The notes: a model not told the origin generated them from the sequence alone. DNA of 64,000 nucleotides from a virus (IMGVR_UViG_3300031853_000006:32001-96000); one strand, 5' to 3'; counted from the first letter of the stretch, positions 2-31,507 are shown. Numbers and translations are program-made.

Positions 2-868
2 CTTCCGGCAACAACAAACTTTACGGGTGCGACAACATCTTTAACAGTCGATGCCCAGATGCTTCCGATGAAAACATTTGCAGCTGCAACTGATGCCGAA
101 ATAGCTCAGATGGTTGCAGCCGCTGATGCTGGACAGATCGACCTTTACGAGGATTGCGGATGGAGAGTAGGGCAAGAGCATCAAACAACGATCTCAGCTA
201 TTGCAGTATCTGGTACATACGACGGAGTCACTTGGTCAGTTGGTGAATCACAGCCGCAGCAAACAATAACACTCGTGTTAATGCACAGAGGCCTCTACCA
301 ACTAACAACCCCCGTCCTCGACAAACAAGGCAACCCTCGCAGCACGTGCTCCTTCGTCGTCGGAGTGAAGGATTGCTTGTCTGCTGCTGGCTATATGAAC
401 TTGACAAATACTAACGGAGGCTCGTGGAATGCATCAAATAGAAGACCATGGTGCAATGGAGGATTTCGTCAATCCTTATCGGATAGCTTGCGGTCTGTAT
501 TTAAGCAGTTTGAGACAGTGACGGCTCAAACTTATAGTGGCTCAACAAATCAAACATCGCAAGACTACTTTGCCCTCCCTGCCGCAGCAGAAGTGTTTAA
601 GGGCGACTCGATGTACGGAACTGGAGGTTCGGCAGGTCCAAAAACTGCATACTCAAACCTAACAGAATTCAATGCTCTAACAAGGTTCACATGGTACGGA
701 ACAACGAGCAATAGGGTCAAAACCAGAAAAGATTCCGCCTACCCTTGGCGGGAGCGCTCGCCTTATTACGGCTCCAGCAACCATTTCTGTTTTGTGAGCA
801 ACAACGGCGGTACCGACCTTACCACTGCTAACGGTACTGTTGGATTGTCGCCTTTCGGCTGCTTGTGA
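2..868 (+). CDS. Tail fibre / receptor-binding protein A, 5'-truncated by the window edge; C-terminal DUF6273/C-type-lectin-like tip domain
   Basis: Frame is open from nt 2 (LPATTNFTGATTSLTVDAQMLPMKTFAAA) and is collinear with the middle of ORF 1529..3022; ends in WRERSP...FCFV...GLSPFGCL. Confidence 0.8.
   Translation, partial: LPATTNFTGATTSLTVDAQMLPMKTFAAATDAEIAQMVAAADAGQIDLYEDCGWRVGQEHQTTISAIAVSGTYDGVTWSVGESQPQQTITLVLMHRGLYQLTTPVLDKQGNPRSTCSFVVGVKDCLSAAGYMNLTNTNGGSWNASNRRPWCNGGFRQSLSDSLRSVFKQFETVTAQTYSGSTNQTSQDYFALPAAAEVFKGDSMYGTGGSAGPKTAYSNLTEFNALTRFTWYGTTSNRVKTRKDSAYPWRERSPYYGSSNHFCFVSNNGGTDLTTANGTVGLSPFGCL
439..522 (+). repeat. Inverted repeat IR1-left (84 bp), inside fibre A
   Basis: Exact reverse complement of 1266..1349. 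Confidence 0.95.
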
Positions 869-884
869 TGATAGCATACAAAAC

Positions 885-921
885 AAGCTCCGCAACGTCG
901 TTTAACTTTGCGGAGCTTTTT
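885..921. terminator. Bidirectional hairpin terminator between fibre A and its silent cassette
   Basis: AAGCTCCGCAA / TTGCGGAGCTT stem with A- and T-rich flanks. Confidence 0.75.
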
Positions 922-949
922 CTTTGATTAAGTTGAGAAGATTAGTTTG

Positions 950-1349
950 TTATAAGCAGCCGAAAGGCGCTAACCCAGAAACAATGTTAGCGTAGCGATC
1001 GGCGGCGGAGCCATAGCCGCTAACAAGACAGAAACCGCTGCTGTCGCGGTAACGAGGCGAACGCTCCCACCAATAGTCGGCGGATCCATTCCAATTTTTA
1101 ACTCGGTTACTTGTTGTTTGGTAATATGTTATTGCTGACAACGCGTTTGCTTCGGTAGTTGTGGAATAAGTCCGAGAATTGAAGATTTCCTTTTCAGCGA
1201 ACAGTGCAAAGTAGTCTTGTGAAGTAATATTTGCTCCTCCGGAAGTCGAGCCGCTGTAATCCCCAGTCACTGTCTCAAACTGCTTAAATACAGACCGCAA
1301 GCTATCCGATAAGGATTGACGAAATCCTCCATTGCACCATGGTCTTCTA
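950..1349 (-). other. Silent alternative C-terminal cassette for fibre A (no start of its own)
   Basis: Begins with IR1 (RRPWCNGGFRQSLSDSLRSVFKQFETVT), then diverges and ends WWERSP...GLAPFGCL; in frame after inversion. Confidence 0.9.
1266..1349 (-). repeat. Inverted repeat IR1-right (84 bp)
   Basis: Exact reverse complement of 439..522. Confidence 0.95.
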
Positions 1350-1528
1350 ATCGAGTAACCCTGTCCACAATTCTACGAACCCTCTAAACTCCCACACTGC
1401 AAACTACACTTAAATCTCAACAGACCAACCTTGTTTAATACTACATTGAAGGAGAGTTCTACCCCTCCGATCTTATACAAAGAAACACAACGAGAATTCT
1501 TCAAATACAAGGAAGGAGAAATATCAAT

Positions 1529-3022
1529 ATGGCAACAGTCACAGAGCCTTTATTGCTTGATGAAACCGGTCAGGCAATGATTACGCAACTTGAGAACATC
1601 AATGATGCACTCGAAGTTAAGGTAACACCTGCAACGACTGATAAGTTAGGGCTTGTCAAGCCTGATGGAGTTACTCTTAATGTCACACCCGACGGGACTA
1701 TATCGTCATCTCGCATCTTTGTTCAGGTTCCTGTAGTCAGCGAACAGACCTACACCTACAACGGGCTGACGCAGTACCTCATATTCACATCAATCTCTCG
1801 AGAAGATGTTACTGTCACAGGTGATTCTGCTACTGATGCAGGTAATTACACTTGTACAGTTTCACTTAACAATCCGAACGGAATGTGGAGCGACGGAACA
1901 GTCGCACCTAAAACATTCCCTTGGTCAATTCAGAAAGCAACCGGTTCAATCACATTATCTGAATCATCGCTTTCGCTCGATACTAACACACCCTCCGCAG
2001 TAGTTAATGTAACTATCGTAGGTGACGGAACAGCGACGTTTGCAGCAGAAGACCCAATGATTGCGAGTGCTTCGCCGTCAGTTATAACCTATTCATCTCC
2101 TGTAACAATAACAGGACTCCGGACAGGTTCTACAACGATCACAGCAACATTGGCTGCAACAACAAATTACACAGGAGACAGTGCAACTATAGAAGTTACA
2201 GCTGAGATGGTTCCGTTAAAGACGTTTGCAGCTGCAACTGATTCAGAAATCCGACAGATGGTTGAAGCAGCAGATGCGGGACTTATTGATCTCTACGAAG
2301 ACTGCGGATGGAGAGTCGGTCAAGAGCATCAGACGACTGTTGCAGCAATGGCAGCATCTGGTACATACGACGGAGTCTCCTGGTCAGTGGGTGAGACTCA
2401 TGCAGAGCAAACAATAACACTTGTATTGATGCATCAGGGCTTGTATCAGTTAGTCAACGCAGTTAAGGATAAGCAAGGAAATAACAGGACAACCTGCTCT
2501 TTCGTCGTCGGAATGAAGGATTGCCTTAACGAAGGCGGATATATGAATTCTACTAATACAAATAGTGGTTCATGGAACGGATGTGCAAGAAGATCCTGGT
2601 GCAACTCTGCATTCCGCCAAGCCCTCCCTGCCGATTTAAGAGCAGTGTTTAAGCAGTTTGAAACGGTCACCGCAACGGAGTACAACGCTAGTACGACCAC
2701 AACATCACAAGACTACTTCGCCTTAGCAGCTGCAGCCGAAGTGTTCAAGGGCGATCCTGATTATGGTCAAGGCGGCTCAGCCGGTCAGCAAACCGCATAC
2801 TCAAACCTGACCGAGTTCAACGCACTGACGCGATTCACTTGGTATGAGACATCAGCGAATAGGAGGAAGGCACAAGGACAGAACGGATCTAATATATTTT
2901 GGTATGAAAGGTCACCCTGTGCAGATGTTACAGCGACGTGGCTCTGTGTTAATCAAGGAGGAGGTCCTCGAGGGAGTGGGGCTAATAATCAATTCGGATT
3001 AACATTCTTCGGCTGCTTATAA
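1529..3022 (+). CDS. Tail fibre / receptor-binding protein B (Ig-like stalk plus DUF6273/CLec-like tip)
   Basis: RBS AAGGAAGGAG; LGLVKPDG repeat, T/S-rich Ig-like segments; C-terminal half paralogous to 2..868. Confidence 0.8.
   Translation: MATVTEPLLLDETGQAMITQLENINDALEVKVTPATTDKLGLVKPDGVTLNVTPDGTISSSRIFVQVPVVSEQTYTYNGLTQYLIFTSISREDVTVTGDSATDAGNYTCTVSLNNPNGMWSDGTVAPKTFPWSIQKATGSITLSESSLSLDTNTPSAVVNVTIVGDGTATFAAEDPMIASASPSVITYSSPVTITGLRTGSTTITATLAATTNYTGDSATIEVTAEMVPLKTFAAATDSEIRQMVEAADAGLIDLYEDCGWRVGQEHQTTVAAMAASGTYDGVSWSVGETHAEQTITLVLMHQGLYQLVNAVKDKQGNNRTTCSFVVGMKDCLNEGGYMNSTNTNSGSWNGCARRSWCNSAFRQALPADLRAVFKQFETVTATEYNASTTTTSQDYFALAAAAEVFKGDPDYGQGGSAGQQTAYSNLTEFNALTRFTWYETSANRRKAQGQNGSNIFWYERSPCADVTATWLCVNQGGGPRGSGANNQFGLTFFGCL
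2609..2653 (+). repeat. Inverted repeat IR3-left (45 bp)
   Basis: Exact reverse complement of 3865..3909. Confidence 0.95.
2704..2751 (+). repeat. Inverted repeat IR2-left (48 bp)
   Basis: Exact reverse complement of 3484..3531. Confidence 0.95.
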
Positions 3023-3033
3023 TCTGCAAATCA

Positions 3034-3212
3034 AAAGAACTGCCATCAAAAGGCAGTTCTTTGAATGTACGCAGAAAGTTTAATCATACTAGCCCGCTGC
3101 CTACAACTGTGCGGCAGCGGGCTTCGCGGAGAGTGTTCTGTTCCTCCGCGAAATAAGATAGAGCCATCTAGTTCAGCCTAGTTGCATCAAACCGCCAATT
3201 TTAGGCGGTTTT
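3034..3212. terminator. Cluster of four GC-rich hairpins between fibre B and its cassettes
   Basis: Stems AAAGAACTGCC/GGCAGTTCTTT (3034-3062), AGCCCGCTGCC/GGCAGCGGGCT (3091-3123), TTCGCGGAG/CTCCGCGAA, AAACCGCC/GGCGGTTT. Confidence 0.7.
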
Positions 3213-3221
3213 CGTTTTGTG

Positions 3222-3531
3222 TCACAAGCAGCCGAAAGGCGACAACCCACGAGCATTGCTAGCGTTGCTACCGCCGGCGCTGGCGTTGCCCACAGCACAA
3301 AAACCGTCGCCGTTGTAGCAACGGGGCGAACGCTCCCACCAAGCGGAGGCGGAGCCCTCCACATTTTTAGCTCTGTTGCTCGTTGTCTCATACCACGTGA
3401 AACGAGATAGTGCGTTAAATTCGGTCAGGTTTGACCATGCGGTTCCTTGACCTACTGAAACACCTGTACCATAATCCGGATCCCCCTTGAACACTTCGGC
3501 TGCAGCTGCTAAGGCGAAGTAGTCTTGTGAT
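3222..3531 (-). other. Silent alternative C-terminal cassette B1 for fibre B
   Basis: Starts with IR2 (SQDYFALAAAAEVFKG), no start codon or RBS, ends GLSPFGCL. Confidence 0.9.
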
Positions 3532-3534
3532 TAA

Positions 3535-3909
3535 TCAAAGGCAGCCGAAGGGAGATAGACCATAATTACCTATCACATAATAATTAGTAGGAGTGCCAGA
3601 GCTGCTCGCTAGACACTCATCAGTGTCATTATAGTAAGCAGGCGAACGCTCCCACCAACCATAGGCGGATCCGTTCATAGTTTTGATCCTGGTTGTTGTC
3701 CGATAGTAAGTGATAGCAGTCAGCGCGTTTGCTTCGTTTGTCGTGCTATTGGGATTTGATGCATGAACCTCCTTTTCGGCAAACAGTGCAAAGTAGTCTT
3801 GCGATGTAATGTTTGAGCCTCCGGTTTGATAATTATTAGATTGACCAGTAATGCAGTTAAACTTCTTAAACACTGCTCTTAAATCGGCAGGGAGGGCTTG
3901 GCGGAATGC
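3535..3909 (-). other. Silent alternative C-terminal cassette B2 for fibre B
   Basis: Starts with IR3 (AFRQALPADLRAVFK), ends GLSPFGCL; same FAEKE subtype as cassette 950..1349. Confidence 0.9.
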
Positions 3910-4021
3910 GCTTAAACTCCGTCAAAAATGAAACTACATTATTATATAAGAAACAAAGTAATTGATGAACCTTATTTAATGTTGATGAAATCAATGATCA
4001 CTGGAAGGAGGAAATCTTCAA

Positions 4022-4483: not shown

Positions 4484-5104
4484 ATGGCCCAAGTAACATC
4501 CCCTCTCCTGCTAGACGGAACAGGCCAGACCATGCTCACGAAACTCGAAGGAATTCGTGCAGCACTTGCTGCAGAGGTAACCCCTGCAACAACAGCAACG
4601 GCAGGTATCGTCAAGCCGGACGGAACCACAATTACAATAGATGGTAACGGAACCATTTCAGCTGCCGTAGCCCCTGCAACAACATCGGTCGCAGGTACTG
4701 TAAAGCCGGACGGAACCACCATTACCGTCACCAACGACGGAACAATTTCTGCAGATGTTGCCTTTGCAACAACCGCAAAAGCAGGTACTGTAAAGCCGGA
4801 CGGAACGTCGATCACAGTATCGAATGACGGCACCATCTCAGCACAAGCAGGCGAAATGGTGTTCCAGAGTCACTTAATAGAAGCATCAGGATGGTCAAGT
4901 AACGTATATTCATTTGAGCTGGAATATCCGAGTGCTTCATATGACATTCTTGACATCACACCTAGTGAGACTGCATCAGATGCACAGAGAAAAGCATGGA
5001 TTTCGGCAGATTGCGGTGGGTTCAGAGCAACTAACACAATTTATGCACACGGAACCGTGCCCACAACCGACATTCCCGCAGTATTGCTAGTAAGGTCAAA
5101 GTAA
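4484..5104 (+). CDS. Short tail-fibre-like protein with three AG.VKPDGT.IT...DGTISA repeats
   Basis: N-terminus MAQVTSPLLLDGTGQ paralogous to fibre B; ~78-bp tandem repeats at ~4580-4840. Confidence 0.7.
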   Translation: MAQVTSPLLLDGTGQTMLTKLEGIRAALAAEVTPATTATAGIVKPDGTTITIDGNGTISAAVAPATTSVAGTVKPDGTTITVTNDGTISADVAFATTAKAGTVKPDGTSITVSNDGTISAQAGEMVFQSHLIEASGWSSNVYSFELEYPSASYDILDITPSETASDAQRKAWISADCGGFRATNTIYAHGTVPTTDIPAVLLVRSK

Positions 5105-5183
5105 CAAGTGTGTTAGCTAATAAAGACACTTGCATATAAACAAATTAACAACCAAAAACTATTCAGATTGGAGGAATAAAAAC

Positions 5184-5513
5184 ATGAGAGCTGTTATTCT
5201 TGCAGACGGAACACGTATTGATAATGTCAGCGATTCTAGTTCAGTTGATGCAATTCTTGCCATCAGAGAGAACTACGAAGCAGCAGGAGCTGTTCGCGAT
5301 ATCTTTACAGCAGAGAATTCTACTTCTTTCGAGATCGTAGATGAGGAAGGAAAGCAGATCGCAGTAGCATCAGAGGTTATCCTCGGTGACGGTGCACAGC
5401 TGTATTCTACAGAGGGCGGAGTTATCTGCCAGGTTAACTTCCGTGCTAAGACTGATGTAGAGATTCTTCAGGATGAAGTTAAAGAGCTTCAGGATGCTGT
5501 AATCGAGGGATAA
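5184..5513 (+). CDS. Tail-fibre-associated protein
   Basis: Start MRAVILADG after GGAGG; ends ELQDAVIE. Confidence 0.55.
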   Translation: MRAVILADGTRIDNVSDSSSVDAILAIRENYEAAGAVRDIFTAENSTSFEIVDEEGKQIAVASEVILGDGAQLYSTEGGVICQVNFRAKTDVEILQDEVKELQDAVIEG

Positions 5514-5526
5514 GGAGGACAAAGAC

Positions 5527-5676
5527 ATGAGTAAATCAATGGCTAAGATCTGGGCACGTCGCATTCACGACGGCGCTTATACACTCGACGATGTGAAAGC
5601 AAAGTACGGCGAAGAGGGAGTTCAGCAGGTTAAGGAAGCTTACAGACAGCTTTTCGGTACAGACATTCCGGAGTGA
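5527..5676 (+). CDS. Small CD1375-like protein (49 aa, absent from the ORF track)
   Basis: AAGGAGG RBS; MSKSMAKIWARRIHDGAYTLDDV...; terminator at ~5699-5735. Confidence 0.65.
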   Translation: MSKSMAKIWARRIHDGAYTLDDVKAKYGEEGVQQVKEAYRQLFGTDIPE

Positions 5677-5757
5677 CACATAATTAACAATTAAGAGTAA
5701 GGGACGTCTAACATCAGATGTCCCTTTCTTTTTTCTTCTAAGGAGGAATAAGCTGTA

Positions 5758-6135
5758 ATGAACATCGAAGCTGCAACATTGAAGTATTACAATGCAAACA
5801 ACCGAGGGAACAGAACGAGTGACTGCGTAAAACGTGCATTGTCGTTAGCTCTAGATATTTCATACACCGATATTTCTAAACTCCTCAATGCAGAGATGCA
5901 TAGGCAGCACGAAGATGCATGGAACTATCCTAATGTTTACGGGAAAGTAGCTAAAGATCTAGGATGCTCTGATTGGATGTATGATGGAGTTATAAACGAA
6001 AACGGCAGGATGAAATTAGACGAATTTGTCGACACGGTGCTTGATCCTAATAAGACCTACCTTGTGCATACAGGGAGGAGCGCTTCAGCTCTCAATCATA
6101 CGAAAATTTTATTTTCTTTCCGCAAGTTTCGTTAA
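5758..6135 (+). pseudogene. Phage gene truncated by the TnpB element (N-terminal part)
   Basis: NN.G.RT.DCV.RAL motif; sequence turns AT-rich after ...ALNH at ~6099; an orphan start-less C-terminal ORF lies at 7616..7738. Confidence 0.55.
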
Positions 6136-7614
6136 ATTATTTATTAAATATAACGATTCTTACGAATTTTCACTGAATCTATAAGAATCTAGTGAAATAT
6201 ATAACCTTAAATATAATTAGATATCTAAACAAAGAATGAGAAAGGAGGTGAAACATATGAAAACTTGGAAATCTAACCTTAAGCATCTTAGTCTAAAAGA
6301 TTATGAAATCCTTCGTGATATGTGCCATGCAAGCAAGAATGTTTACAATGCTTCGCTTTATAACATTCGGCAACATTTCTTTCAACAAAGCGAATTTCTT
6401 CGATACGAAGCTAATTATCACTTGATGAAAGGTACCAATGTCTACGATTATCTTGGTAATGTTGCCCAGCAATCTATGAAAGCAGCTGACAGTGCATTCA
6501 AAGCTTTCTTTGCTTTGATTAAAATGTATAAGCAAGGCAAGTTGGAGAGTAGGCCTAACATTCCACATTACTTACCTAAAGATGGATTTTTCAAAATCGA
6601 GTTCAACAGCCCTAGGGACCAGAAGAAGAATATCGAGCAAGGCTACTATCAGCTACCAATGTCTCGATACCTTGCAACCAAGTACGAAGGCATCAGGGTC
6701 AAGATAACAATTCCGCCTTACTTGCGTGACAAACATATTCGACAGATCCACATCATTCCTAGATGCAATGGCAAGTACTTCGAAGCCTGTTTCTTGTTTG
6801 ACGATGTCGAAAATCAAAAAGTTAATCTCGATTTAACTAAAGCATTAGCAATTGATTTAGGTGTCAACAATTTTGCAACTTGCGTAACTTCTGAAGGAGA
6901 TTCATTTATAATTGACGGTAAGAAAATCAAATCAATCAACCAATGGTATAACAAAGAAAATGCCAGACTGTCAAGTATTAAGTATAAACAGAAGTTAAGC
7001 AAAGAGGCAACCAACAGGCAAGCACGATTGTCCGCAAAACGAGGACGCCGCATCAATGATTTCATCTATTGTTCTGCAAAGTACATAGTTGAATATTGCA
7101 TCGATCATAACATTGGTAATCTTGTTGTAGGATACAATGACGGCTTTCAGGATAATCCTAATCTAGGTAAAGTCAACAATCAAACCTTTGTGATGCTACC
7201 TTACGGCAAATTCAAAAGCAGGCTCGAACATTTATGCAACTCGGTTGGGATAACCTATACCAAACAAGAAGAATCTTATACCTCAAAAGCAAGTTTCTTT
7301 GACCTAGATGATATGCCAATTTGGAACCCTGATAATCCTCATCAAGGCAGCTTTTCTGGGAAGCGAATCTATCGAGGTCTGTATAGAAGAAACAATGGAA
7401 CTAATCTTAACGCTGATGTAAATGGAGCGCTAAATATCCTAAGAAAATGTAATGTTGTAGACCTTTCGGTCTTATACAGTAGAGGCACTGTCGTCGTGCC
7501 TACAAGAATAAGGCTATCCTGACTTTTTCAGGAGGAAACTCAAACAGCAACCTTCTTGCGAATAGAATTCTATTAAAAATCTTAATGTAACTTGATAATT
7601 TTTAATTTATTCTA
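6100..7614 (+). mobile_element. Solo-TnpB element (IS200/IS605 superfamily, no TnpA)
   Basis: AT-rich island with tnpB and end hairpins at ~6100-6132 and ~7563-7614; ends approximate. Confidence 0.7.
6257..7522 (+). CDS. tnpB: RNA-guided endonuclease TnpB
   Basis: RuvC motifs AIDLGVNN, VVGYN (rearranged, with QEESYTSK) and NADVNGALNI; N-terminal SKNVYN. Confidence 0.92.
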   Translation: MKTWKSNLKHLSLKDYEILRDMCHASKNVYNASLYNIRQHFFQQSEFLRYEANYHLMKGTNVYDYLGNVAQQSMKAADSAFKAFFALIKMYKQGKLESRPNIPHYLPKDGFFKIEFNSPRDQKKNIEQGYYQLPMSRYLATKYEGIRVKITIPPYLRDKHIRQIHIIPRCNGKYFEACFLFDDVENQKVNLDLTKALAIDLGVNNFATCVTSEGDSFIIDGKKIKSINQWYNKENARLSSIKYKQKLSKEATNRQARLSAKRGRRINDFIYCSAKYIVEYCIDHNIGNLVVGYNDGFQDNPNLGKVNNQTFVMLPYGKFKSRLEHLCNSVGITYTKQEESYTSKASFFDLDDMPIWNPDNPHQGSFSGKRIYRGLYRRNNGTNLNADVNGALNILRKCNVVDLSVLYSRGTVVVPTRIRLS

Positions 7615-9831: not shown

Positions 9832-10059
9832 ATGAAAGGTATTTCAAAAATGGATGCAAAGCAGAAAATCAAAGAGCTGAGATCTAGAACAGGCTTATCA
9901 CAACAAAAATTCGGCATGCTTTTCAAGATGTCAGCAATCAATATCTCTAACTGGGAGCAAGGAGTAACTAAACCTCCCGAGTATGTTGTATACATGCTAG
10001 AAAGACTCATGGAATTGGATCCTGATATTCCAAAAGTAACTAACAAGGAGAATAACTGA
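9832..10059 (+). CDS. XRE-family HTH regulator
   Basis: IKELRSRTGLSQQKFG...ISNWEQG. Confidence 0.85.
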   Translation: MKGISKMDAKQKIKELRSRTGLSQQKFGMLFKMSAINISNWEQGVTKPPEYVVYMLERLMELDPDIPKVTNKENN

Positions 10060-10061
10060 TA

Positions 10062-11132
10062 ATGTCGTACACTCAACCCTTCTTCAGCTTAGTAATTCCA
10101 TGCTACAACGATGGAAGATACAAAGCAGGAGCTTATTTGGATAGGTTACTCTCTAGTGTAGTGGCTTCAAATCTGCAGTATGACGACATTGAAGTCATAC
10201 TAGCAGATGATCATTCACCTAAGCCCTACATGCGGACAGTTAACAAATTCAAAAAGTATTTCAACATAAAGATGATAAAAACCGAATACCAGTTTGGGCC
10301 CGGAAACACTCGGCAGGTCGGTACAATGATAGCAAGAGGCAAATGGCTGTGCTTCGCAGACCATGATGACACCTTTTATCCGCGAGCATTGCATACAGTC
10401 ATGGACCTAATTAACAATAGCGAAGGCGATCTAGTATACGTCCATGCTGATTTCGACAAAGTGAACAGTAATAACCCAGATGAAATTGTAGAAAGGTTCT
10501 ATAAGACGGATAATAACGCACTTAAGTTTGTTCATGGCAAGTTCTACAACATCGCAAAGCTATGGAAACCGTTTCATCTGCATTTTCCGAAGGATTTGAA
10601 GACACATGAAGACGTCGCATTAGGTTGTCAAGTAGAATGCGTGCTGAAATACGTTGATCCTAGTCAGATCTTGTATGTCCCTACACCTGTTTATAAATGG
10701 ACAGATAATCCAGAGTCAATTTCTAATCAAAACTACAACGATACTAAGTCGAATCCATTTCTGGAGAGGGCTTACTCAGATTATCTTACTTCCAACATAG
10801 GGCAATTTGTTGAGCAAGCTGAATTAGGTCGGCTGACTCCTATAGAACTTACAAACAAGGTACTTGTAGTCTTCTTAGGCAGCTGGTTCCAATTATACAA
10901 CTTCAAAGTCAATCATCCAGACACTTACATCAAGGAAAACATCGACTATGTGAAATACTGGTGGCACAGATACAAAGAAGTGTCACATTTCAGTACTCCT
11001 GTAATCAAACTAATGATCGCACAAGGGTTCACACAGTTAGCGCTGACCTTGAATCGAACTGCACAAGCTTACGGAGTCGAAAATCTGGATGAATGGCTTG
11101 AAATCTTAGATAGAAAGGAAGAGAAACAATGA
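10062..11132 (+). CDS. Glycosyltransferase family 2
   Basis: SLVIPCYN, ADDHS, GPGNTR, FADHDD, HED motifs. Confidence 0.9.
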   Translation: MSYTQPFFSLVIPCYNDGRYKAGAYLDRLLSSVVASNLQYDDIEVILADDHSPKPYMRTVNKFKKYFNIKMIKTEYQFGPGNTRQVGTMIARGKWLCFADHDDTFYPRALHTVMDLINNSEGDLVYVHADFDKVNSNNPDEIVERFYKTDNNALKFVHGKFYNIAKLWKPFHLHFPKDLKTHEDVALGCQVECVLKYVDPSQILYVPTPVYKWTDNPESISNQNYNDTKSNPFLERAYSDYLTSNIGQFVEQAELGRLTPIELTNKVLVVFLGSWFQLYNFKVNHPDTYIKENIDYVKYWWHRYKEVSHFSTPVIKLMIAQGFTQLALTLNRTAQAYGVENLDEWLEILDRKEEKQ

Positions 11133-12211
11133 GTAAACCATTTCTAAGCGTAATTATTCCATGCTACAACGACGGGAGGTACAAAGACGGTGTATATTTA
11201 GACCGATTACTGACCAGTATGACTAATCAGGGCATGAAACGAGAAGAAGTAGAGGTCATAATTGCAGATGACTGCTCACCTGAGCCATTTTTCGATAAAT
11301 ATGAGGAAAAGTTCGGTGATAAGTTTATTATGAAGTATGTCAAGACTGATTACAACTTCGCTCCTGGAAATACTCGTGCTAAAGGAGTTGAAATAGCGAC
11401 GGGCGAATGGATGGCTTTCGCAGACCACGACGATATGTATTATCCGCAAGCGTTTACAGCAGTACGAAATGCAATCCGCGAACGCAACGAGAAATACTTC
11501 ATATTCACAGATTTCACTGGAGTAACTCCCGAAGGAGAAGTCACAAAAGCGTACAAATGTGTGCTGAACTGGTGCCACGGCAAGTTCTACAATAGAAAGA
11601 ACCTCTGGGACAAATTCGGGATACATTTCATCCACGATCTTGCTTCGCATGAAGACATAGCAATATGCACTCAGGTCGCATGTGCGTTTACACAGCTACA
11701 ACAGGAGCTTACATATCTCGCAGTTGCATCTTACGCTTGGACCGACAATCCTCAGTCAGTGTCCCATGCAAAATACTATGTAGAAGGGTCAGACGGGCCT
11801 AGATACTTCTTAGAAGTATTCTTTAAGGACTATCTAACTGCAACTGGTTATATCTACTTAAATGAATTTGCACAACATAAAATATCACTTAAGTATGCAG
11901 TAACTAGGTGCATCGAGATAGCTGTATACTGCTACATATACACGCAAGGCTTCCAGTTCAAACGCAAGGATTTTCTGAAAGAGAACTTATTCCATTCGGG
12001 TGAATTCTTGAACCGAGTTAAAGAAACATTCAATCTAACTAACGAGCAGATTTATGATGCAGTAGCTGAAGATAACGCAGCCATCTATCGAAAAATCAGA
12101 CCATTAGCCGACCCGGGAGCAGGTGCATACATTCCCCAACAAAGCTTTATGGAATGGATTGAGCTAGTCGACCAAGCATATATCAGTGCAGAAGAGCAGC
12201 CTAATCGTTAA
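11129..12211 (+). CDS. Glycosyltransferase family 2 (paralogue)
   Basis: SVIIPCYN, ADDCS, FADHDD, HED motifs. Confidence 0.9.
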   Translation: MSKPFLSVIIPCYNDGRYKDGVYLDRLLTSMTNQGMKREEVEVIIADDCSPEPFFDKYEEKFGDKFIMKYVKTDYNFAPGNTRAKGVEIATGEWMAFADHDDMYYPQAFTAVRNAIRERNEKYFIFTDFTGVTPEGEVTKAYKCVLNWCHGKFYNRKNLWDKFGIHFIHDLASHEDIAICTQVACAFTQLQQELTYLAVASYAWTDNPQSVSHAKYYVEGSDGPRYFLEVFFKDYLTATGYIYLNEFAQHKISLKYAVTRCIEIAVYCYIYTQGFQFKRKDFLKENLFHSGEFLNRVKETFNLTNEQIYDAVAEDNAAIYRKIRPLADPGAGAYIPQQSFMEWIELVDQAYISAEEQPNR

Positions 12212-30398: not shown

Positions 30399-30962
30399 AT
30401 GAAAGTATTCAGAGAGATGGAAACAGATACAAATACCTTCAAAATAGGAGACAGGATCGAAGTACAGTTCGGGAATGAATCTCACTACGCAACAGCCATC
30501 CAGCAAAGAGGCTATGAAATGCTCTTTCTAACCGATGATTACCTCGACGATGCAATGCCTATGAATCCAACACCCTTGACTGAGGGAGGATGGGCAGAGA
30601 GTGAACTCAGGAAAAGACTGCAGAGTGTAGCAGAAACCGTCGACATCAAAGATCAGCTAGTGCCCTTTGAAAACGGGGACCTTTTGACTCTCTTAAGTAT
30701 TCAAGAGATGTTCGGACTTGACAAGAGCTTCAATGAATGCGAAGGGCAGATTGAGTGGCTGAAAGATCGCAGACACAGAATCACAGAAAGAAAGGGCGAT
30801 CCTTACGAATGGGGATGGCTGCGCTCAGTCGTATCCGCGTCGAGTTTCGCGATTGTCGACAGTGACGGCTGTGCGGACCGTGGGGGTGCGTCCTACGCTC
30901 ATGGCGTCTGCCCAGCTTTCCTGATCAAGAATACTATCACAGAAAGCGAGGTAGAGGAATGA
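30399..30962 (+). CDS. DUF6273/CLec-like protein 1
   Basis: GGWAESELRK, LLSIQE, WGWLRS...F..V...G...A....GVCPAF. Confidence 0.75.
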   Translation: MKVFREMETDTNTFKIGDRIEVQFGNESHYATAIQQRGYEMLFLTDDYLDDAMPMNPTPLTEGGWAESELRKRLQSVAETVDIKDQLVPFENGDLLTLLSIQEMFGLDKSFNECEGQIEWLKDRRHRITERKGDPYEWGWLRSVVSASSFAIVDSDGCADRGGASYAHGVCPAFLIKNTITESEVEE

Positions 30963-31507
30963 AGAACTCAATGGAGGTATTAAGAGAGATCGAGACAAAA
31001 ACAGATCGTTTGCAGGTCGGGGATAGAATAAAAGTTAGCTTTTCAGGAGAAGAGCACTATGCAACGGCTATTCAGCAAAGAGGCGATGTGATGCTCTTTC
31101 TGACTGACGACTACCTCGATGACGCTATGCAGATGAACCCTACAGACACGACTGAGAGAGGATGGGCAGGGAGTGAGCTCAGAAAAAGACTGCAGGATAT
31201 AGCGGACAACACAGATATAAATGATCAGCTGATACCCTTCGAGAACGGAGATCTTCTGACTCTTCTGAGCATCCGGGAGATGTTTGGACTCGATGAAAAT
31301 TTTGATGAGTGTGACGGTCAGATTGAATGGCTAAAGGATCGCAGACACAGGATCGCATTAAGAAAAGGAGAATCCAACGAATGGGGGTGGCTTCGCTCCG
31401 TCATGTCGGCGACGCATTTCGCTAATGTCTACAACAATGGGTTAGTGAACTACTACTACGCGGGGAGTGCTATTGGCGTCCGTCCAGCTTTCCTGCTTAA
31501 GTTATAG
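30959..31507 (+). CDS. DUF6273/CLec-like protein 2 (tandem paralogue)
   Basis: Highly similar to 30399 except the final ~30 codons. Confidence 0.75.
   Translation: MKNSMEVLREIETKTDRLQVGDRIKVSFSGEEHYATAIQQRGDVMLFLTDDYLDDAMQMNPTDTTERGWAGSELRKRLQDIADNTDINDQLIPFENGDLLTLLSIREMFGLDENFDECDGQIEWLKDRRHRIALRKGESNEWGWLRSVMSATHFANVYNNGLVNYYYAGSAIGVRPAFLLKL

Follow-up and report, generated by a model that had tools for sequence, protein, structure and literature searches.

Have the tips of a phage's receptor-binding fibres been written by a diversity-generating retroelement (DGR), and does such an element still act on them? The question is raised by the window analysed here, a stretch of 64,000 nucleotides that corresponds to bases 32001-96000 of the 116,896-bp IMG/VR virus record IMGVR_UViG_3300031853_000006 (CheckV completeness 78%). 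It opens within a 9.6-kb receptor-binding array (genome 26309-35921, or window -5691 to 3921, partly upstream of the window), which comprises three full-length fibre genes and eight promoterless 3' cassettes, on both strands and all encoding the Pfam domain DUF6273. DGRs and invertible cassettes represent the two known programmed ways in which phages vary receptor-binding proteins, and an earlier note on this DNA had proposed that both operate here: expressed and silent tips would all be targets of a DGR located outside the window, in a two-tier system whose cassettes can mutate in their silent state before being flipped in.

A longer contig in ENA (145,798 bp; analysis ERZ27256883) represents the same phage and adds ~28.7 kb on the left side of the record. 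Its genes are also present in Logan contigs of SRR9036418, and the sequencing runs that hold the phage are labelled as cattle-gut metagenomes. The sequence covered here consists of the 116.9-kb record and the gene annotations of the next 9.6 kb leftward; the remaining ~19 kb (13% of the 145.8-kb contig) lies outside this coverage. A query with the fibre protein found no close relatives in IMG/VR. Cassettes are designated by their position in the window (c) or in the record (g).

The mutational footprint in the fibre tips

Four tips form the core of the comparison and are termed fresh: that of the expressed fibre A and those of the silent cassettes c950, c3222 and g28946, the last of which lies upstream of the window. 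In each of them, the tip codons are the 26 codons between W-x-E-R-S-P and G-L-x-P-F-G-C. When they are aligned codon by codon, 20 first and 19 second positions are variable and only five third positions are, with mean pairwise differences of 0.52, 0.50 and 0.098, respectively. The third base is exactly kept in all four tips, C staying C and T staying T, in 21 of the 26 codons, the identity expected from base frequencies being 0.135 per column (binomial p = 1.9e-14). Codons that end in C or T (NNY) number 26, 26, 25 and 25 of 26, compared with a phage-wide fraction of 0.495 (p between 1e-8 and 3e-7 for each tip). The pattern described earlier, in which positions 1 and 2 vary and the third is held at C or T, is thereby confirmed, and all the codon pairs quoted for it (TAT/CGT, TCC/GAC, AAC/AGC, CAT/GGT, ACC/CGC and GGT/ATT) are present in the alignment.

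The variable region (VR) lies, as had been claimed, between fixed motifs, GAGCG[C/T]TCGCC at 752-762 and CCTTTCGGCTGC at 851-862, which recur in the cassettes, and every fresh VR closes with the conserved GGG TTG KCG CCT TTC GGC TGC. Its start had been given as 745 and is actually earlier, at 734 (TCC GCC). Each fresh tip departs from the majority third base at 0-3 codons, c3222 also lacks one codon, and the third bases of g28946 and c950 differ at 1 of 26. The cleanest VR in the array is that of g28946, with 26/26 NNY codons and zero third-base departures from the majority.

The idea that expressed and silent tips are all DGR targets holds for fibre A and three silent tips, but not for the tip of fibre B, which has no DGR footprint (14/26 NNY; third-base difference from the core tips of 0.81), and only in part for c3535, whose tip block (3541-3669) reaches 21/26 NNY and lacks the third-base pattern of the core tips. 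Judging from its codons, the c3535 tip would be either an old VR or one written from another template. The cassettes g27690(+) and g30617(-), with 23/26 and 20/26 NNY codons, do not fully keep the shared third-base pattern either, while g29962(+) (14/26), g28305(+) (13/26) and the first fibre (18/26) are, like fibre B, near the background.

A shared template

Inside the block, positions 1 and 2 differ by near 0.5 and the third position by 0.04-0.15, whereas in the 44-64 aligned codons just upstream the third-position difference is saturated (0.41-0.69). Such a low difference at silent sites next to saturated flanks shows that a common template has replaced the block since the cassettes diverged from one another, within this phage lineage. 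The template inferred from the tips is 129 nt long and contains 50 adenines, nearly all of them in AAY codons. All four tips have A in common at only two columns, and the possibility that one of the cassettes is the template repeat (TR) was rejected, as no tip carries adenines at the majority of the variable columns. At the level of sequence, a footprint of DGR adenine mutagenesis, from one shared template, is thus confirmed on one expressed and three silent tips, far beyond chance. Given the 0-3 third-base departures per tip and the codon missing from c3222, the last homing events appear to be recent relative to the divergence of the cassettes, but not current.

Outside the array, the window holds two tandem small DUF6273-like open reading frames (ORFs) without a fibre stalk (30399-30962 and 30959-31507; 187 and 182 aa; PHROG 21980). 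In their ~28 C-terminal codons after WLRS, the differences by position are 0.46/0.39/0.46, compared with 0.19/0.12/0.52 upstream, so that non-synonymous divergence is raised and the third base is not conserved. These genes were rejected as a second VR pair of one template, since their third-position difference is at a similar level in the tip (0.46) and upstream of it (0.52).

Relatives with complete retroelements

The nearest homologue outside the phage (P0004, 59% identity) is encoded on contigs L001/L002, where the fibre gene is followed by a small Avd-like ORF and a reverse transcriptase (RT) gene of the RVT_1 family; the order is the same around P0012 on L014/L015. In L001 and L015, an adenine-rich copy of the final ~135 nt of the fibre gene, the TR, lies between the small ORF and the RT, and the TR-VR mismatches fall at template adenines in 18 of 19 cases in L001 and in 23 of 28 in L015. 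These VR/TR pairs cover the homologous codons of the variable block exactly and without gaps, and the test of adenine sites was run by proxy on them, in place of a cognate TR. Variable columns of the four tips fall on TR adenines with odds ratios of 36-42 (p = 7e-13 and 5e-14): 30 of the 32 columns that are A in the TRs of both relatives vary here, compared with 16 of 84 non-A columns. Taken alone, this coincidence might stem from surface positions that the proteins share; combined with the conservation of third bases, it identifies the mutational process. The templates of L001 and L015 agree with the majority third base of the four tips in only 17-18 of 26 codons, which argues that these tips share a private template.

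L014 contains, besides the RT downstream of its DGR-targeted fibre, a second RVT_1 gene (5705-6880, 391 aa) 4 kb upstream of it. A temperate relative, L018 (JGI 3300031760 contig, 4561-6621 and 10001-11353, with a 62-kb counterpart in ENA), has three DUF6273 genes, of which one tip shows 25/26 NNY codons and another 21/26, and no RVT_1 is on record up to 10 kb on either side. Tips with a DGR footprint and no adjacent RT may be common.

Domain and predicted fold

According to the literature, DUF6273 is a C-type-lectin-like (CLec-like) domain that DGRs target and whose C-terminus holds the VR (PMC10743442; PMC11792537; bioRxiv 10.1101/2024.10.15.618418), and it matches fibre A with an E-value of 7.5e-10. 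The AlphaFold2 model of the C-terminal 269 residues of fibre A (predicted local distance difference test, pLDDT, 96.4) adopts a C-type-lectin-like fold. A structure search ranks the DUF6273-like domain of 9qa6 first (Z 15.7), ahead of many C-type lectin domains, and 132 chains, mostly such domains, reach Z>=5; the matches include Legionella Lcl (8q4e, Z 7.2) and the DGR protein TvpA (2y3c, Z 6.9). The variable codons fall on the predicted binding face of the CLec domain in the model. Both the domain match and the predicted tip structure that the earlier note had called for thus bear out a CLec-fold target carrying the DGR pattern.

Hairpins downstream of the variable regions

DGR targets need a hairpin or cruciform a short distance behind the VR, whose own 3' end is conserved and IMH-like (Guo et al. 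2011, PMC3240598), and the true VRs of L001 and L015 are followed by 10-12-bp hairpins 15-18 nt after the stop. Here, a hairpin stands 13-39 nt after the stop of all four fresh VRs. One of them (885-918) is shared by fibre A, 19 nt after its stop, and the convergent c950, 34 nt after its stop, and could act as a terminator, as a DGR target hairpin, or in both roles. The earlier statement that hairpins lie just downstream of most stops thus stands for fibre A and c950, c3222, g28946 and fibre B; no hairpin follows the stop of the folded decayed tips c3535 and g27690. The arrangement would fit the DGR target requirement but is only suggestive, because fibre B, which lacks the footprint, has a hairpin as well and T-runs after some of the hairpins give these the look of terminators. 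Table 1 collects the coordinates of the array and its elements.

Table 1. Features of the receptor-binding array (window positions unless marked as genome).
Feature	Position	Strand	Remarks
First fibre gene	genome 26309-27802		full length
Fibre A	genome 31381-32868; 2-868 is its 3' part	+	ORF, 495 aa; DUF6273/C-type-lectin-like receptor-binding domain
Fibre B	1529-3022	+	497 aa, full length; tip 2888-3016
Eight cassettes	genome 27690, 28305, 28946, 29962, 30617, 32950, 35222, 35535	+, +, -, +, -, -, -, -	last three are c950, c3222 and c3535
Silent 3' cassette c950	950-1372 (genome 32950-33372)	-	open frame, no start context of its own; DUF6273
Silent 3' cassette c3222	3222-3531	-	5' part repeats fibre B 2704-2851 in inverted orientation (148 nt, 86%)
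Silent 3' cassette c3535	3535-3921	-	5' arm (3859-3909) repeats fibre B 2609-2659 in inverted orientation (51 nt, 98%)
VR block of fibre A	734-862	+	129 nt; 25/26 tip codons NNY
VR block of c950	956-1084	-	26/26 NNY; departs from the majority third base at 1/26
VR block of c3222	3228-3353	-	126 nt, one codon shorter; 25/26 NNY
VR block of g28946	genome 28952-29080	-	26/26 NNY
Inverted-repeat arms, fibre A/c950	434-522 / 1266-1354		89 nt, 98%; second arm at 5' end of c950; would swap the fibre A tip for c950
Inverted-repeat arms, fibre B/c3535	2609-2659 / 3859-3909		51 nt, 98%
Inverted-repeat arms, fibre B/c3222	2704-2851 / 3384-3531		148 nt, 86%
Hairpin between convergent fibre A and c950	885-918		11-bp stem; z -3.7 and -4.4
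Hairpin downstream of c3222	3189-3211		8-bp stem; 13 nt downstream of the stop; z -3.5

Search for the retroelement

The DGR of the relatives lies directly after the fibre gene, a place that is occupied here by cassettes. In the 116.9-kb record, RVT_1 (PF00078) is absent, and tblastn with three RTs and two Avd-like proteins of relatives gave no match below E 0.05. A TR was sought in the same record by blastn with word size 7, with a fuzzy motif and with an ungapped scan using the inferred 129-nt template, and only the VR copies were recovered. Further left, on the longer contig, the gene annotations of the adjoining 9.6 kb have no RVT_1 match on record; look-ups of the end proteins place there a holin, clamp-loader-like genes and a 400-aa recombinase of the RecA_N family (UvsX-like). 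A related Logan contig runs the wrong way for extending the sequence leftward, and both an RT and DUF6273 are missing from a complete 159-kb relative. Five patterns, with N at adenine sites or as an explicit TR version, were searched for in public collections, the last of them validated by 3 matches in the window; the viral contigs of IMG/VR, the metagenome contigs of JGI and the genome contigs of GTDB gave zero matching TRs or VRs, the phage's own records being possibly absent there. The search of the full genome that the earlier note had suggested thus yields no RT, Avd or TR in the 116.9-kb record, with ~19 kb of the phage beyond coverage, and a present-day DGR outside the window, acting in a working two-tier system, is not established.

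Inverted repeats and possible cassette exchange

Every cassette starts with an in-frame inverted or direct repeat of a stretch internal to a fibre gene. The repeats differ from pair to pair and measure 51-148 nt in the window and up to 330 nt in the array, further pairs lying upstream of the window. Reading frames continue across them, and an inversion would exchange ~100-140 C-terminal residues; the cassettes in direct orientation (g27690, g28305 and g29962, all on the plus strand) could reach an expressed gene only via nested inversions. From this arrangement we infer that inversion may occur in the phage. Neither serine (PF00239) nor tyrosine (PF00589) recombinases are found in the 116.9-kb record, the neighbouring ORFs belong to no recombinase family in PHROGs, and a Pfam scan, made of 4484-5104 and 6236-7522 only, gave no recombinase. 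Exchange at the long inverted repeats could be driven by the RecA_N recombinase of the left extension, and if inversion occurs, homologous recombination is as likely as a dedicated invertase.

The population data come from Logan, that is, from assembled contigs in which rare variants are dropped. In run X1, which is the likely source sample (share 0.96), contigs break exactly at the repeat arms, and none of them joins the flipped form. Runs X2-X4 contain diverged relatives only, in short pieces. At L005 4279/9664 and 6116/9618 (L005 1309-7000 being genome 26309-32000), a low-depth contig of run X3 links sequence resembling a cassette to sequence resembling fibre B on the opposite strand, close to the conserved VFKQFETV region; it stems from a diverged relative, is the only contig of this kind, and weakly hints that the order or orientation of cassettes differs between related phages.

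Explanations for the array

The explanation that we prefer, with a probability of roughly one half, is that the fresh tips are orphan VRs left by a recently lost DGR and are now reused by cassette exchange. As the sequence itself shows, one adenine-rich template of ~129 nt, made up almost entirely of AAY codons, was reverse-transcribed with random misincorporation at adenines, and its copies took the place of the final ~43 codons of the DUF6273 C-type-lectin domain in no fewer than four array members, fibre A and three silent cassettes. The DGR (RT, Avd and TR) would no longer be linked to the array, having most likely been lost fairly recently, and the stored variants would now be used only through cassette exchange at the long in-frame inverted repeats, by homologous recombination or by some further recombinase. 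Loss is consistent with the negative searches described above, with cassettes standing where the relatives have their DGR, with the third-base departures and the codon deletion in the tips, and with the gradation of NNY counts from 26/26 to 20/26 across the other cassettes, and phages that keep DUF6273 targets after the loss of their DGR have been reported (bioRxiv 10.1101/2024.10.15.618418).

Several points weigh against this explanation. The part of the contig beyond coverage may hold the RT and the TR. Inversion was never observed in the contigs of the phage, and no recombinase was found in the record. The association of little-decayed fresh VRs with hairpins, and of the two folded decayed tips with none, would fit continuing targeting. 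Finally, the X1 contigs cross the VRs of fibre A, c950 and g28946 (three of the four) with no differences at ~10-13x depth, and such uniformity at contig level is compatible with low-level DGR activity.

The explanation that comes next is possible, at well below even odds: a DGR in the uncovered ~19 kb, in the host or in a co-resident element still retrohomes into the tips, and inversion brings the mutated cassettes in. The whole footprint applies to it equally, the in-frame repeats tie every cassette to a fibre gene, several VRs on one template are known from multi-target DGRs, and remote targets 17 kb from the TR have been published (bioRxiv 10.1101/2024.10.15.618418); decay of third bases is low, g28946 and c950 differing at a single codon, and hairpins follow all four fresh VRs and neither of the two folded decayed tips. 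It has to contend with the lack of RT, Avd and TR in the record and of any RVT_1 on record in the adjoining 9.6 kb, with a distance of 36-65 kb between the array and the uncovered part, whereas the DGR of the relatives adjoins the fibre, and with the absence of a matching TR or VR from the three collections and of an RT from the complete relative. The contig-level uniformity of the VRs, together with ordinary C/T changes and a codon deletion within them, also counts against ongoing homing. That the whole forms a working two-tier system, in which one remote or in-trans template hypermutates silent and expressed tips and recombinase-independent inversion shuffles them into three fibre genes, is in our view doubtful.

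Import of ready-made tips, in which 3' ends of cassettes would have been captured from DGR phages of the same host and no DGR would ever have acted in this genome, is unlikely. Many of the homologues are DUF6273 fibres with an adjacent DGR, recombination could be anchored in the conserved WWERSP and GLSPFGC motifs, and the L018 tip with 25/26 NNY codons and no RT within 10 kb would suit such a source. The four tips, though, share a private third-base pattern that the TRs of the nearest relatives match at only 17-18 of 26 codons and that no VR or TR in the collections searched displays, and four imports from one donor lineage into cassettes with saturated flanks are less economical than one resident template. 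The remaining explanation, that paralogous tips diverged without any retroelement, by ordinary mutation, strong diversifying selection and a quirk of codon usage, can appeal to the frequency of positive selection in receptor-binding loops and to the position of the variable codons on the predicted CLec binding face, but is effectively refuted and hardly credible, as it does not produce 26/26 NNY codons and exact C/T retention (p 2e-14), nor silent sites at 0.04-0.15 beside flanks at 0.41-0.69 with positions 1 and 2 near saturation and many double hits, and as ordinary divergence can be seen for comparison in fibre B and in the paralogues at 30399-31507, whose third positions are no less diverged than elsewhere.

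Neighbouring genes

Downstream of the array, an ORF at 4484-5104 (206 aa) shares the N-terminus of the fibres (MAxVTxPLLLD.TGQ) and contains three 90-nt tandem repeats (4563-4842) that code for TPATT..AG.VKPDGTTI units; it may represent a short fibre or an adaptor protein. At 6236-7522, 2.3 kb downstream of the array, there is a gene of the TnpB/IS605 OrfB type (OrfB_IS605 and Cas12f1-like TNB domain), and the relative L014 has a gene resembling it near its DGR (1277-2413).

Significance and comparison with known systems

On the evidence of the tips, one retroelement template wrote into several members of an invertible library, silent ones included, and hypermutation and cassette switching would therefore have been layered on the same tips at some point in the lineage. 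With a DGR that is still active, diversity could build up in silent cassettes free of selection before these are tried, much as in antigenic variation, and a true two-tier system would multiply the choice of cassette by the sequence space of the DGR. If the DGR has been lost, as we prefer, the locus shows DGR diversity that was frozen and then reused by recombination. Exact third-base identity against saturated flanks makes DGR action detectable without a TR or an RT.

The closest known counterparts are the DUF6273/C-type-lectin DGR targets of gut Bacillota phages (the Faecalibacterium phages Toutatis, Lelie, Roos and Pioen, and the 'tentaclin' phages nd4/nd12) and of L001/L002 and L014/L015. 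They share with the present array the Pfam domain and the CLec fold, a VR formed by the last ~43 codons (W-W-E-R-S-P ... G-L-S-P-F-G-C), an AAY-rich template, a hairpin 13-39 nt after the stop and the use of one template for several targets. Their loci differ in that Avd, TR and RT follow directly after the fibre, none of which was found here, whereas the VRs of this phage stand on promoterless cassettes in both orientations, tied to expressed genes by inverted repeats.

With multiple-inversion systems and shufflons (Gin of Mu, Cin of P1, Min of p15B, Rci of R64, and Rin of Bifidobacterium/Eggerthella prophages, PMC8778435), the array has in common the inverted alternative 3' segments behind an expressed receptor-binding gene and the in-frame repeats at which inversion would swap the C-terminal domain. 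In contrast to them, the record yielded no recombinase of the serine or tyrosine type and no alternative orientation was seen in contigs, and the repeats are long and specific to each pair, where shufflons have short shared crossover sites. In the literature searched, DGRs and shufflons occur in different phage clades and not on the same cassettes. Finally, orphan or remote VRs of DGRs, as in Toutatisvirus (bioRxiv 10.1101/2024.10.15.618418) and the fragmentary DGR cassettes of crAss-like phages (PMC12386605), resemble the tips described here in bearing the footprint without a linked RT and in showing some non-adenine substitutions; what sets this phage apart from them is that at least four orphan VRs, sharing one template, are arranged as an exchangeable library of cassettes.

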